A DNA stretch of 64,000 nt from NCBI RefSeq assembly GCF_041886205.1, contig NZ_CP169029.1. One strand, written 5' to 3'. This DNA is from Escherichia coli. GTDB lineage: Bacteria; Pseudomonadota; Gammaproteobacteria; Enterobacterales; Enterobacteriaceae. Every line of letters begins with the position of its first letter. The stretch's first letter is position 1. This document shows positions 13,879-18,516 of the stretch, in pieces. The position numbers and the translations under genes are program-made. A model generated the notes under the pieces. That model did not search any database. It was not told the DNA's origin and saw only the letters and a list, made by a program, of their open reading frames with translations.

Positions 13879-13888
13879 TTATTCATTT

Positions 13889-13916
13889 GCCGGAGTGGGC
13901 GAACCCCCACTCCGGC
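13889..13916. terminator. GC-rich stem-loop between convergent artJ and sulfatase gene (no U-tract on either strand)
   Basis: gccggagtggg / cccactccggc 11-bp perfect stem; located between two stop codons. Confidence 0.4.
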
Positions 13917-13928
13917 AAAATCACCTCT

Positions 13929-15410
13929 CTACACTAACCCCAGGCGCTGAAACTGCTCTGGCGGCGCATCATTGTCTTTCATCAACTGAATCAGCAACGC
14001 GATCATCCGGGCCTCGATCGCATCATCATGAATCGGATGCAGCTGCTGCGGATCGTTTTGCAGATCAAACAGCAAATGACCAAACTGATTCAGCCCCTTA
14101 TATTTCTCCTGTGCCGGGATGCGTAGCACCTTTAACCCTTTGGTGAAACGAAACGGTGGAGCCAGCGATAAAGCCCGCATCTCATCCACCGGATAGCGGC
14201 TGTTCATTTTGCAAGCCATTAAGGTGTAGTTAGCAATATCATCCTCACGCCCCGGCAGCGCGGCACGCATATACACATAACGCCCATCGGTTACGTTGAC
14301 ATGACCACTGAAGACACCAAATATAACCGCACTGCGTACCGGTTCATCGTGGCTGACCGTTTTCGCCAGCGGTTGCCCCTGCACATCGGGCGGCACCGGC
14401 TGCTGAAAAAAGTCATACAACGTAGGTGCCCAGTCGATCATCTGCACCAGCGCCTGACGCCGTTCGCCTTTTACACCGCTGCGCGGATCCCATATAAACA
14501 GCGGGTTATTCGCCACTTCGTTGTAATAAGGCATCTGGTTTTTCGCCCACCAGCCATGCTCACCAAGTAAAAAACCGTGGTCGGTGCCAACAATCAGCAT
14601 GGTGTCTCGCCACAGATCGTGCTCATCCATCAGGTCGAGAATGCGCCCCAGGTTACGATCGCACATCGATACCAGCGAGCGATATCGGCAGCGGATATGC
14701 TCCACGGCCTCGTCGCTTTCCTGAACCCTGCCACGTGGCCAGTCATAATACGGCCCGCTCCAGTCATCCTCATATAACGAAAGGTACTCTTCCGTTGTGT
14801 AAAACGGCTCGTGCGGATCAAACGTTTCGACCTGCAATAACCAGTTATCTTGCGCGTGGTTTTTGTGGATAAATGCACAACCCGCGTCAAAGACTTTGGT
14901 TTGGGGAAAATCCGCTTCCTGCTGAATATATTCCCGGTTGGCCCAGTCATGACGCCACAGGCCAGAAACACCGCCGCCGGTCTGCTTTTGCGGCTCCCGT
15001 AGCACCTCGGGAATAGGCGGTTGCGCAACGCTCGCCTGCCAGTGATCGCCTTCCTGGCCGCGCACAATCTCCCATGAACTGTAGCGATTATGGTAATTTC
15101 CGCCACCATCTTCCCAGTAATGCAAATGATCGCTTATCAGGTGGGTATAGATCCCCGCCTTTGTAAGCAGCTCCGGCATGGAGTCGTCAAACGGTTCTAA
15201 CGGCCCCCACTCCCGGTGCAGAAAATTGCATCGCCCGGTATGCAGCTCCCGTCGGGCGGGCATGCAGGGCATACTCCCGACGTAGCTGTTTTCAAAGGTG
15301 GCGGCATGTGCCGCCAGGCGTTGGAAGTTCTCTGCTTTTGTCAATAAGTCGCCATACGGGGGTAAATATCTTTTGTTCAGGCTATCGAACAGGAGAATAA
15401 TGGCTTTCAT
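13929..15410 (-). CDS. Cys-type (formylglycine) sulfatase family protein, predicted cytoplasmic (no signal peptide)
   Basis: 493-aa ORF; sulfatase signature C-x-P-x-R (SMPCMPARRELHTGR) at residues ~46-60; N-terminal LLFDSL..YG resembles sulfatase metal-binding start; last gene of PTS operon. Confidence 0.8.
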   Translation of the reverse strand: MKAIILLFDSLNKRYLPPYGDLLTKAENFQRLAAHAATFENSYVGSMPCMPARRELHTGRCNFLHREWGPLEPFDDSMPELLTKAGIYTHLISDHLHYWEDGGGNYHNRYSSWEIVRGQEGDHWQASVAQPPIPEVLREPQKQTGGGVSGLWRHDWANREYIQQEADFPQTKVFDAGCAFIHKNHAQDNWLLQVETFDPHEPFYTTEEYLSLYEDDWSGPYYDWPRGRVQESDEAVEHIRCRYRSLVSMCDRNLGRILDLMDEHDLWRDTMLIVGTDHGFLLGEHGWWAKNQMPYYNEVANNPLFIWDPRSGVKGERRQALVQMIDWAPTLYDFFQQPVPPDVQGQPLAKTVSHDEPVRSAVIFGVFSGHVNVTDGRYVYMRAALPGREDDIANYTLMACKMNSRYPVDEMRALSLAPPFRFTKGLKVLRIPAQEKYKGLNQFGHLLFDLQNDPQQLHPIHDDAIEARMIALLIQLMKDNDAPPEQFQRLGLV

Positions 15411-15422
15411 TGCTCATCCCTT

Positions 15423-15743
15423 TTATTTGTTTATCAGATAAGGGAAATGCTGTTGGACGACTTCATAAATCTGTGCACCAATCGTTTCACCATCCATAAT
15501 ATTTTCAATCGGGATCAGATATTGCCCGTGTTTCGGGTCCAGACTGACTACGTCGAGTAATTTTTTGGAAATAGCAAAAATATCTGCCCAGTCGGTAAAT
15601 CCTCCCACCTCACCTGCGGCAGTATGTTCCATTTCAACTTTGAACTCATATTTCGTCAGTGCTTTTTTAACGACCGTTTGTAACATCACGCTACTACCGA
15701 CACCATAACCACAGACAAACAGAATATTAATTGTATCTTTCAT
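15423..15743 (-). CDS. PTS EIIB component, L-ascorbate (UlaB/SgaB) family
   Basis: 106-aa ORF; N-terminal INILFVCGYGVGSS with phospho-accepting Cys in the position typical of UlaB-type EIIB. Confidence 0.8.
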   Translation of the reverse strand: MKDTINILFVCGYGVGSSVMLQTVVKKALTKYEFKVEMEHTAAGEVGGFTDWADIFAISKKLLDVVSLDPKHGQYLIPIENIMDGETIGAQIYEVVQQHFPYLINK

Positions 15744-15764: not shown

Positions 15765-17108
15765 TTATCCCGCGTAAGGACCAAGGTGGAATGTTGCAGC
15801 GATAAATTTCAGAACTTCACAAATAGCAGGCCATACAGTTGCCCAGTCAAATATTCCTGTCCAGCCGACGCCATTTTCAGCAAGCCCGGTTAACGGAATA
15901 GCCCACACCGTACCGAAGGTCTGAATAATACCCAGCAAGAAGGTACAGATAATTACGGAGCGGTATCCGCCCATGCGGTTTGCTAAAACGCCAATCGGGC
16001 CGCCTGAGAAAAATAACGGTACAAAGCCTGGCAATACCATAATGGGGCTGTGGATCAGTAATAAGATACCCATCGAGAAAATGGTGCCAAAAGTACAGAA
16101 GACAAAACCTAACGTTGCGGCTTTGGGTGAAAAAGGCAACAGCGCGGCGACATCGACGGCGGGAATGGCATTAGGAATAAAGCGATCCTGCCAGCCTTTA
16201 AAAGAACCGTTAATTTCACCGACCATCATGCGCACGCCCTGCAACAGAATGACCATGTACATGGAGAACTGTAAGCCCAGGTTGATAATATAGATGTACC
16301 AGGGTTTACCTTTTGCCATCATCTGAACGTTATCGATGCCCGTGGAGAGCAGGAACCCGCCAACAAACAGCGTCATCACAATGGCGATAGCCGTCACGTT
16401 GTGGTTAAAAATCGCCAGCCAGCCGGGGAGTTTCAGGTTTTCAGCATCGTGCTTTTCCGGGTCGCCAAATTTATGCGCGAATTTGGAGAAAAACCACAAA
16501 CCCAACATCTGGTTATGGGCAATGGTAAAACCGGCATCTTTGGTCACTTTGGCAATGGGTTTAGCAATGAGCGTGGTGGAAAAAGCCCAGAATATACCCG
16601 TTAATACCCCGGCGATAATAATCGATGTAGTCCAGCTAAATCCTAACCAAAAAACGATTAACCATAATACTGCCTGAGAATGTGACACACCGGTATTACC
16701 GGTCAGGAATATTCCTTTGGCACCGGTATAGCGACCAAACAGCACCAGTAAGAGGTTGGTAAAAAACGCCAGAACAAATACATAACCTACGTAACCAAAA
16801 TTATCCCCCAACGCAATTTGCGTTGCGGCTTTCATGGCGTAGGAATCCATTAAATAACCGTGAACGCCATAGGCTTTACTTACCGCTTCTGCCACCGGTT
16901 TAAAGGTTGCGGAAAACTGAAAACCACCAAATAGCACCATCATTAATCCCACCATGGCACTGACCATACCGGTGATTATTTTGATGGGCGATTTTTTATC
17001 GAGGGCATAACCAATGCCCACCAGCAAACCAATTAATATTGCGGGTTCGGTTAAAAACGTTTGAATAACATCTATGAATTTGGCAAACATCGTCGGAACG
17101 CCCTCCAT
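15765..17108 (-). CDS. PTS EIIC permease, L-ascorbate (UlaA/SgaT) family
   Basis: 447-aa polytopic membrane ORF immediately upstream of the EIIB gene; length and hydrophobic profile typical of UlaA-like EIIC; start could be ATG at 17108 or ATG 18 nt downstream. Confidence 0.8.
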   Translation of the reverse strand: MEGVPTMFAKFIDVIQTFLTEPAILIGLLVGIGYALDKKSPIKIITGMVSAMVGLMMVLFGGFQFSATFKPVAEAVSKAYGVHGYLMDSYAMKAATQIALGDNFGYVGYVFVLAFFTNLLLVLFGRYTGAKGIFLTGNTGVSHSQAVLWLIVFWLGFSWTTSIIIAGVLTGIFWAFSTTLIAKPIAKVTKDAGFTIAHNQMLGLWFFSKFAHKFGDPEKHDAENLKLPGWLAIFNHNVTAIAIVMTLFVGGFLLSTGIDNVQMMAKGKPWYIYIINLGLQFSMYMVILLQGVRMMVGEINGSFKGWQDRFIPNAIPAVDVAALLPFSPKAATLGFVFCTFGTIFSMGILLLIHSPIMVLPGFVPLFFSGGPIGVLANRMGGYRSVIICTFLLGIIQTFGTVWAIPLTGLAENGVGWTGIFDWATVWPAICEVLKFIAATFHLGPYAG

Positions 17109-17296
17109 AAGCGTACATTTCCGTTGTCAATGCATGAACCTTCTGCTGACGTTAATAATGCTTCAGGTATTTTTTATTTTTCGCTAAGCGATGCCTCTGC
17201 TAGTATTCGGTAAACGCACTGTAGTAATCAAAACAGTTCATTTAAAGATCTTATTTGATTATTTGTGATTTGATTTGCAAAAATAGCGCAATATAT

Positions 17297-17339
17297 AACC
17301 GTGATCGATCGGTTAATATTAATCGATCGATCACGGTTA
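17297..17339. promoter_or_regulatory. 43-bp near-perfect inverted repeat containing four GATC sites; candidate operator upstream of the PTS-sulfatase operon (or rlmC 3' hairpin)
   Basis: aaccgtgatcgatcggttaatattaatcgatcgatcacggtta is self-complementary with a single mismatched pair; two GATCGATC blocks. Confidence 0.5.
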
Positions 17340-17388
17340 TTATTTGGAATGGATGTATGCCGAAGTGATATTGATTTGAGTGATGTAT

Positions 17389-18516
17389 TTACATTTTTAC
17401 CAGCAGCGTCAGCACTTCATAGTGCGCGGTGTGCGGGAACATATCAAAAAGCTGTACCCGTTCAATACGAAACCCAGGCAGTTCGCGGATATCTTTCGCC
17501 ATAGTTTGGGCGTTACAGCTGGAGTAGATAATAAAACGCGGTGCCATCGTTGAGAGATAATCACACAGCGGTTTACCAATGCCGCGGCGCGGCGGGTTAA
17601 CCAGCACCAGCTCCGGCACCTCCCCCTGAGCGGTGGCAAACTGAGTGGAGTCCAGCGCCTGAAATTGCAAACGCGTTAAGCCCAGTTCAGCGGCTGACTG
17701 CTTTGCACAGGCAATGGCCTCTGGCGCAATTTCGATCCCGGTTAACTGCATGTCAGGCGTCGCGCAGTGTAAACCAAAGCCCCCCACACCGCAGAACAGA
17801 TCCCACATATGTTTAACCGGCAGCTGTCGTACCCAGTCGCGCGCGGTGGCGTACAACTGGCTGGCGACAGCCGGATTAGTCTGGAAGAAACTTTGCGGAC
17901 GGATCCACAGCGGTACGTCATTAAAACGCTCCGCCAGCGACTGTTGTTCGGTCAGGTAGATCTCCGTCTCCCCTTCCATAATCGCCATATGTACCGGCTG
18001 AATATTGACGGTAATAACTTTCAGCTGCGGTAGTTGTTCCTGTAACCACGGCAATGCCTTACGCAGTTGTGCCAGTTTGGTTTCAGAACGCAGTACAAAG
18101 CGCAGCATCATGCCGCCATCGCTCTGGCTTTCAGTCAGCAGAATGTATTTCAGTTCGCCACGCTTACGCGCCACGTTGTAGGGCGTTAACCCCGCTCGGG
18201 CGATAAACGGTTTTAGCGCCGCAAAAACGGGCGCAAATGAGGCAGGATAAAGCGGGCAGTCACAAAGGTCTTCTGGTGTGCCGTCGCGATGCAGCATACC
18301 GAGCAGTGGTTTTTCAACGCTACCACTCACCACCATTTTGGCTTTATTACGAAACCCTTGTTCCGGGCCTGACACCGGCGCGCACCATTCCTCAACCGGA
18401 AAGTCGGCGAGCAGATTTTTAAGATCGGCGGTTTTAGCGGAGAGTTGCTCTGGAATCGGCTGCGTTATCCACTGACAGGAACGACAGCGACCCGCGTCGT
18501 AAAGTGCGCACTGCAT
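17389..18516 (-). CDS. rlmC: 23S rRNA (uracil747-C5)-methyltransferase RlmC
   Basis: 375-aa ORF; N-terminal Cys cluster [14 protein letters not shown] (Fe-S) and SAM-MTase C-terminal half; exact K-12 length. Confidence 0.93.

Follow-up and report, generated by a model that had tools for sequence, protein, structure and literature searches.

A near-perfect palindrome carrying four GATC sites lies upstream of a PTS-sulfatase operon in Escherichia coli, and it raises the question of whether the element acts on the DNA, as a methylation-sensitive switch or as an operator of the operon, or in RNA, as a 3' hairpin of the preceding gene rlmC. These three candidates had been named in an earlier note on this DNA, with the Dam switch as its headline. 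The question was addressed with the window, i.e., the whole stretch of 64,000 nucleotides that was analysed, and with the corresponding loci in other genomes. The palindrome and the genes around it are located as follows.

17295–17340, minus strand: palindrome, 46 bp with four GATC sites; predicted sense-strand RNA hairpin with a stem of 17–22 bp in the rlmC 3' UTR
17303–17310, promoter-proximal arm: GATCGATC block with two Dam sites, present in Escherichia and Salmonella IIIa/IIIb and not in Salmonella I/II
17325–17332, rlmC-proximal arm: GATCGATC block with two Dam sites; some E. coli have a 4-bp ATCG slippage deletion here
17389–18516, minus strand: rlmC, 23S rRNA m5U747 methyltransferase, the upstream co-directional gene
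15765–17108, minus strand: PTS EIIC of the ascorbate (UlaA/SgaT) family (NF009550, 959 bits), first gene of the operon
15423–15743, minus strand: PTS EIIB, gene of the operon
13929–15410, minus strand: sulfatase of the Cys type (CMPAR motif), last gene of the operon

The EIIC start is at 17108 and the rlmC stop at 17389, both on the minus strand, which agrees with the gap of about 280 bp in which the palindrome had been placed earlier. On the same strand, 49 nt separate the rlmC stop from the palindrome and 187 nt separate the palindrome from the EIIC ATG; any rlmC transcript must therefore include the palindrome or end there. The artJ gene is convergent with the minus-strand genes, from the left side.

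An inverted-repeat search resolved the element into two arms of 24 nt each (17295–17318 and 17317–17340) that are 96% complementary and overlap at the centre, with G17312 opposite T17323 (plus strand) as the sole mismatched pair. The earlier description as a 43-bp palindrome was correct as to the self-complementarity and the one mismatch, and fell slightly short of the length of 46 bp; the four GATC sites in two GATCGATC blocks are as it had claimed. With at most one mismatch allowed, the palindrome arm is 23 nt, the runner-up in the 64-kb window has an arm of 11 nt, and the longest arms in shuffled windows were 9–12 nt (n = 20 shuffles). The palindrome is the longest in the 64 kb, and it is real and statistically exceptional. 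A scan of positions 16800–17700 against Rfam 15 gave sub-threshold matches to generic hairpins only (≤23 bits, against gathering thresholds of 70–180). A mechanically called ORF of 67 aa with a GTG start (17301–17504, plus strand) begins within the palindrome, antisense to rlmC, and has no sign of being a gene.

Of 5,426 complete E. coli genomes, 566 (~10%), including O157:H7, carry the three-gene block together with the whole 280-bp gap and its palindrome. A 66-nt palindrome element matched exactly two BLAST places in each of the 566 genomes, and we infer that these are the two strands of one self-complementary locus, which makes the palindrome single-copy per genome as seen with a query of a length that could miss short half-site copies elsewhere in the genome. 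In the window, the half-site (≤3 mismatches) was found at the palindrome locus only, with 0 expected. The motif search that the earlier note had suggested as a route to a regulon, run with the half-site in the window and with the 66-nt element in the 5,426 E. coli genomes, recovered no copy beyond the locus itself, so that a regulon is not supported. An identity as a REP/BIME or other dispersed palindromic repeat is not supported either, with a single locus in all 566 island-bearing E. coli genomes.

The K-12 strain is without the three-gene block, and rlmC is followed there by a different short hairpin and REP elements, the junction being within the last rlmC codons (the last two codons differ). 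The K-12 hairpin and REP elements in the rlmC-artJ gap are similar to the palindrome in occupying the slot immediately 3' of rlmC and in having a T-tract opposite the rlmC strand. They are different in that the sequences are unrelated, the REP elements are multi-copy whereas the palindrome is single-copy, and the K-12 stem is 7–8 bp.

Only in Escherichia and Salmonella does the operon directly follow rlmC, and these loci include those of Escherichia whittamii, two further Escherichia species, and Salmonella enterica I, II (salamae), IIIa and IIIb. The palindrome was found in every Escherichia or Salmonella locus with rlmC directly upstream of the operon, and is confined to these loci. As the site between artJ and rlmC is the same in Salmonella I, II, IIIa and IIIb, the three-gene block is probably ancestral and was lost from most E. 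coli. In Silvania, Leclercia and Yokenella the operon is elsewhere, without the palindrome but with a 67-nt promoter box that is also found in E. coli. The upstream co-directional gene in Yokenella, which encodes a histidine kinase, ends in its own 9-bp GC hairpin at the equivalent place, and the upstream neighbour in Silvania and Leclercia is a large divergent ORF without a hairpin. No NCBIfam family was matched by this divergent ORF, which we presume to be an arylsulfotransferase, as is found beside the operon in two other loci (L011 and L012). Other short palindromes, TGCGTAGCGCTACGCA and TGTGGTGAACGCCACA, were seen in Silvania (L015, ~2108–2127) and Leclercia (L016, ~2098–2115); they are about 200 bp upstream of the box and a few tens of bases away from where the divergent ORF starts, and are unrelated in sequence to the palindrome of E. 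coli.

The region upstream of EIIC was compared in the rlmC-adjacent loci and in 21 metagenome contigs, which gave 12 distinct versions of the palindrome; three further loci (P0038, P0002 and P0029) held known variants again or a partial locus, and nothing new. All 12 versions are at the same position and have a length of 45–46 nt, except for two 42-nt alleles with a 4-bp slippage deletion. The GATC-type stem (...CCGTG/CCATG-ATCGATCGAT...) is common to Escherichia and Salmonella IIIa/IIIb, and the stem of Salmonella I and II (AAATACAATCAATTGATTA / TAATTCAATTGGTTGTATTT) has 18 bp and zero GATC. Three GATC are present in S. diarizonae and in the E. coli deletion alleles. The deletion of ATCG, by slippage in a GATCGATCG run at the equivalent of 17322–17325, was observed in O55:H7 TB182A (L007) and ESDR8 (L005); it leaves a shorter stem with one GATC fewer, and is carried by about 6 of the 566 genomes, in the band of 80–90% identity.

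Covariation was analysed in an alignment of 10 distinct variants with an 18-pair stem. In this alignment 95% of the stem cells are paired, and the value drops to 15–43% when the partners are slid by 1–3 columns. Seven of the 18 stem pairs are changed on both sides, a covariation score that was reached by none of 500 shuffles, and RNAalifold independently predicts the same helix with 7 covarying pairs. For example, pair 12-49 is C-G, U.G or U-A within Escherichia and is fully compensated in E. whittamii, and at pair 14-47 Escherichia has G-C, a common E. coli allele has G.U, and all Salmonella have A-U. A single branch, the one leading to Salmonella I and II, accounts for six of the seven double-sided changes, and the others are independent. 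Invariance of sequence is instead a property of the two flanks, AAUAAUAA and UUAUAUAUU, and not of the stem.

17337–17345, minus strand: A-rich 5' flank, AAAUAAUAA in the sense, partly the stem base; a T-tract, TTATTATTT, on the plus strand
17290–17298, minus strand: U/A tract UUAUAUAUU at or after the 3' stem base; alignment columns 50–57 invariant and column 58 nearly so (10 variants)
17341–17388, minus strand: spacer from the rlmC stop to the hairpin (rlmC 3' UTR), hypervariable, with two haplotypes within E. coli

The A-rich flank is invariant over alignment columns 4–11 (AAUAAUAA). Across Escherichia and Salmonella, the aligned variants thus show a palindrome whose pairing appears to have been kept by evolution, rather than its sequence or its GATC sites.

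This bears directly on the reading put first by the earlier note, in which the palindrome would be a Dam/SeqA-sensitive epigenetic element and the methylation of clustered GATC would set the operon ON or OFF, as in pap, agn43 and opvAB. The four sites span 30 bp and form the densest cluster in the window (four GATC within 40 bp occur in the 64 kb only at the palindrome), a promoter adjoins them, and the GATCGATCGAT cores are nearly constant in Escherichia and Salmonella IIIa/IIIb, in contrast to a variable outer stem. Clustered GATC in a regulatory intergenic region is what the locus shares with the known Dam switches (pap with Lrp; agn43, gtr and opvAB with OxyR), and the number of at least two sites expected in the regulatory region of a phase-variable operon is reached. 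However, the sites are not conserved in the orthologous loci that keep the element: the hairpin of Salmonella I and II is intact with 0 GATC, and the changes on the branch to Salmonella I and II are spread evenly over the GATC and non-GATC positions of the stem. In addition, the palindrome has no match to the OxyR consensus, and its GATC sites are in a hairpin 3' of a gene, outside the conserved promoter box. Since the symmetry of the palindrome duplicates the sites, the four GATC amount to one GATCGATC event rather than four, and two more GATCGATC blocks exist in the window outside the palindrome. The locus was not mentioned in the methylome literature searched for unmethylated GATC at this place, and no report of stable under-methylation or bimodal expression turned up in that literature. 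The Dam switch is weakened by the loss of GATC in Salmonella I/II with the hairpin kept and by the lack of an OxyR-like site, and we consider it very unlikely; the four GATC sites are probably a lineage-specific feature of the stem and not a conserved functional one. A version in which the hairpin of the GATC-bearing lineages doubles as a methylation-sensitive DNA element atop a terminator role, with that layer lost in Salmonella I/II, has an equally slim chance. If it were true, the hemimethylated sites could recruit SeqA or alter cruciform or protein occupancy, and replication-coupled or heterogeneous expression of the PTS-sulfatase genes could follow. The locus is in any case a clean example for checking a striking GATC cluster against its orthologues before a Dam switch is invoked.

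The comparison of Salmonella I with IIIa adds a second pattern. The identity between the two is 58.7% in the palindrome and ~58% in the 50-nt spacer, and it is 98.6% from the UUAUAUAUU tract to the EIIC ATG. There is a sharp mosaic (recombination) boundary in Salmonella at the promoter-proximal edge of the hairpin: the spacer and the hairpin look to travel with the 3' end of rlmC as two deep haplotypes, and the promoter and operon look recently homogenised. Because of this boundary, the hairpin of Salmonella I/II may represent a segmental replacement and not six compensatory substitutions. In both cases a hairpin was kept at this position, in keeping with a function linked to the rlmC end.

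The same boundary is among the points for a neutral, DNA-level palindrome, whose symmetry would come from arm-to-arm correction (template switching or quasipalindrome correction) and which would have no function in transcription. The element sits exactly at the mosaic boundary between the hypervariable spacer and the highly conserved promoter, its covariation and fold energies have no strand preference, and the 4-bp slippage alleles indicate that it is mutationally active. Against neutrality, the position, the length of 45–46 nt and the constant flanks persist from Escherichia to four subspecies of Salmonella, and the palindrome is missing wherever rlmC is not the upstream neighbour, in keeping with a role linked to rlmC. 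E. coli populations commonly and stably carry the asymmetric U.G and G.U intermediates, which indicates that there is no rapid correction and also counts against this explanation. In general, we regard a neutral palindrome as unlikely.

As an operator, the palindrome would bind a dimeric or tetrameric regulator encoded elsewhere and control the PTS-sulfatase promoter from upstream. In favour of this, the inverted repeat is of the perfect type, the promoter box follows it at a distance of 11 bp, and the two GATCGATC cores have a spacing of 22 bp, close to two turns of the helix. The centre of the palindrome, TCGATTAATA, resembles tCG(t/a)T(a/t)AATT, the high-affinity motif of H-NS, and this was counted in favour of an operator. 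Compared by eye with the consensus sequences of LacI/GalR, Cra, Fur, ArcA, ArgR, GlpR, FNR and IHF and with the integron attC site, the palindrome appeared to fit none of them. A bound half-site would be expected to persist, but 7 of the 18 positions are symmetrically replaced, and the identity of 58.7% between Salmonella I and IIIa stands against the 98.6% of the promoter. There is no regulator gene in the three-gene island and no second copy of the element in the window or the 566 genomes, and three genera keep the operon and the promoter box without the palindrome. The conserved regulatory module of the operon is instead the adjoining box, and the palindrome is not needed as an operator.

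17217–17283, minus strand: putative promoter/operator box of the PTS-sulfatase operon, 67 nt, found in five genera, including the T-rich repeats
17264–17279, plus strand: CRP-like site TGTGA-N6-TTGCA inside the box; half-sites invariant, spacer variable across genera

The box has the consensus TTTTGCAwATnnAnTCACAAAnArTCA...rATCTT...rTGA...TTTGAT..TTA.rGTG. The T-rich repeats that had been noticed earlier at ~17250–17280 are present in it, and are more conserved than the palindrome. We aligned the box with the ulaA promoter region of K-12 (L068, 2858–2925), and the alignment is gapless over 68 columns with 41 of 65 identical. The local score of 18 is reached by 2 of 1000 shuffles, whose scores are 10.8 ± 1.5. 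All of the box columns that are invariant in the five genera are also matched in ulaA. The match to the CRP-like site (2 mismatches) is, taken alone, no better than chance, with 22 found and 24 expected. A sigma-70 scan gave nothing convincing for the operon promoter, and the -10 and -35 elements and the start were not placeable by eye.

The K-12 ulaG-ulaA control region (UlaR, CRP, IHF) is a close parallel to the box, which aligns with the ulaA promoter and precedes an EIIC that is UlaA-like. Control of ula by CRP and IHF was reportedly described by Campos et al. in 2004. The two arrangements differ in that the ula region has no counterpart of the palindrome, and in the upstream neighbour: ulaG is transcribed divergently from the ula promoter, rlmC in the same direction as the operon. 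The alignment with ulaA, together with an island that has neither a regulator nor an EIIA, suggests that the box and not the palindrome is the probable operator and promoter of the operon, and the island may use UlaR, CRP and UlaC of the ula regulon in trans. In SELEX, the gap between ulaG and ulaA is the only target of UlaR, a repressor of the DeoR type (PMC5934670). With varying half-sites, no regulator in the island and an adjoining box that matches the ulaA promoter, the operator proposal of the earlier note has lost ground, and we rate it as quite improbable. The box is the most useful by-product of the analysis: it suggests that an orphan UlaA-like PTS with a Cys-type sulfatase borrows control elements of ula, a testable lead to the substrate and the regulation of an operon carried by ~10% of complete E. 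coli genomes, O157:H7 included, and by Salmonella.

The 3' hairpin of rlmC, the third candidate of the earlier note, is favoured by the rlmC-linked presence of the palindrome, the covariation and the invariant flanks, and the Dam switch and the operator are weakened. The specific form that we propose is a terminator-like, possibly bidirectional RNA hairpin in the rlmC 3' UTR that would insulate the ulaA-like promoter, which from the comparisons of these loci we judge to have slightly better than an even chance of being right. An RNA polymerase leaving rlmC meets the palindrome 49 nt past the stop codon, and the transcribed palindrome is predicted to fold into a hairpin of 17–22 bp between the A-rich run and the UUAUAUAUU run. 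In this model, the hairpin would end and/or stabilise the ybjO-rlmC message, with termination being the presumed outcome, and constitutive read-through into the EIIC-EIIB-sulfatase operon would thereby be stopped. The operon's own ulaA-like promoter, probably controlled by UlaR and CRP, would start 11 nt beyond the hairpin. Because the better T-tract is on the plus strand, antisense transcripts that start in the AT-rich promoter region and run back into rlmC may be stopped by the hairpin as well, and such a two-way block would make it a bidirectional insulator.

The predicted folds are consistent with a structured RNA. The sense fold has -29 kcal/mol and z = -7.6, the antisense fold has z = -8.2, and the folds of all 12 variants range from -15 to -32 kcal/mol. 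As in intrinsic terminators, a stable stem-loop comes soon after the stop codon and its stem has compensatory changes, and invariant flanks around a variable stem are the pattern expected of a terminator. The resemblance to intrinsic and bidirectional terminators extends to the constant flanks, A-rich on the 5' side and U-rich on the 3' side, and to the one strand that was flagged: in the window, a terminator consensus scan flagged the plus strand alone, and the Salmonella loci gave no hit. The G+C-rich stem of ~5–12 bp with a short loop that is typical of intrinsic terminators was not found. The stem of 17–22 bp is 2–3 times the usual length, its GC content is modest (8 of 20 pairs are G-C in the E. 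coli stem by the count of the scan, and 3 of 18 in Salmonella I, where the loop is 9–11 nt), and the sense-strand U-tract is the interrupted UUAUAUAUU, invariant in all variants. With this stem length and U-tract, the hairpin is not a canonical intrinsic terminator. Compared with bidirectional terminators, it differs in having its better T-tract opposite the rlmC strand and in lying between co-directional rather than convergent genes. A literature search for an rlmC terminator found nothing relevant.

The sense strand is not favoured by the fold energies or by the counts of wobble pairs versus A.C mismatches, for which the results were mixed among the 12 variants. Without such a strand preference, the covariation does not prove an RNA structure over a DNA structure; the symmetry may have arisen at the DNA level, or the role may be in RNA processing. 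The latter would be a hairpin for processing or stability, with a perfect stem of ~20 bp serving as an RNase III site or as a block to 3' exonucleases; it would split a read-through rlmC-PTS transcript in two or protect the rlmC mRNA. It draws on the same covariation as the terminator-like hairpin and on the imperfect U-tract. A stem of 17–22 bp, about two helical turns, is also better suited to RNase III than to a typical terminator, which was counted in its favour. Processing is computationally indistinguishable from termination, but RNase III does not require the invariant U/A tract that follows the stem, and we hold this alternative to be distinctly unlikely. On the preferred reading, a terminator-like hairpin behind rlmC, the palindrome is previously undescribed yet an ordinary kind of element, and the stakes of the element itself are small, i.e., one more gene-end hairpin, standing between a constitutive housekeeping gene and the regulated accessory operon that it would shield.

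The operon that would be shielded encodes a sulfatase whose CMPAR motif is the Cys-type formylglycine signature, C-x-P-x-R. The N-terminus of this protein (MKAIILLFDSL) has no evident signal peptide by eye, and the sulfatase is therefore presumably cytoplasmic, which is consistent with action on a substrate imported by the PTS. A speculative candidate for the substrate is a sulfated sugar acid similar to ascorbate, e.g., ascorbate-2-sulfate. Literature searches for STM0884-0886 and for ascorbate-2-sulfate with the PTS returned nothing relevant. In LT2, STM0884 is named ulaA and has an intragenic sigma-54 site.

At the far end of the operon, a 14-bp GC-rich hairpin (TTTGCCGGAGTGGG-CGAAC-CCCACTCCGGCAAA, 13886–13918) fills the 50-bp gap between the convergent stops of artJ and the sulfatase gene. 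It is without a T run and for that reason was not flagged by the terminator scan. With this hairpin and the palindrome, the operon is bracketed by hairpins at both ends. In E. coli ET201 (NZ_CP100994.1), the annotation line of the BLAST match places an IS1 element in the EIIC gene, which it interrupts.
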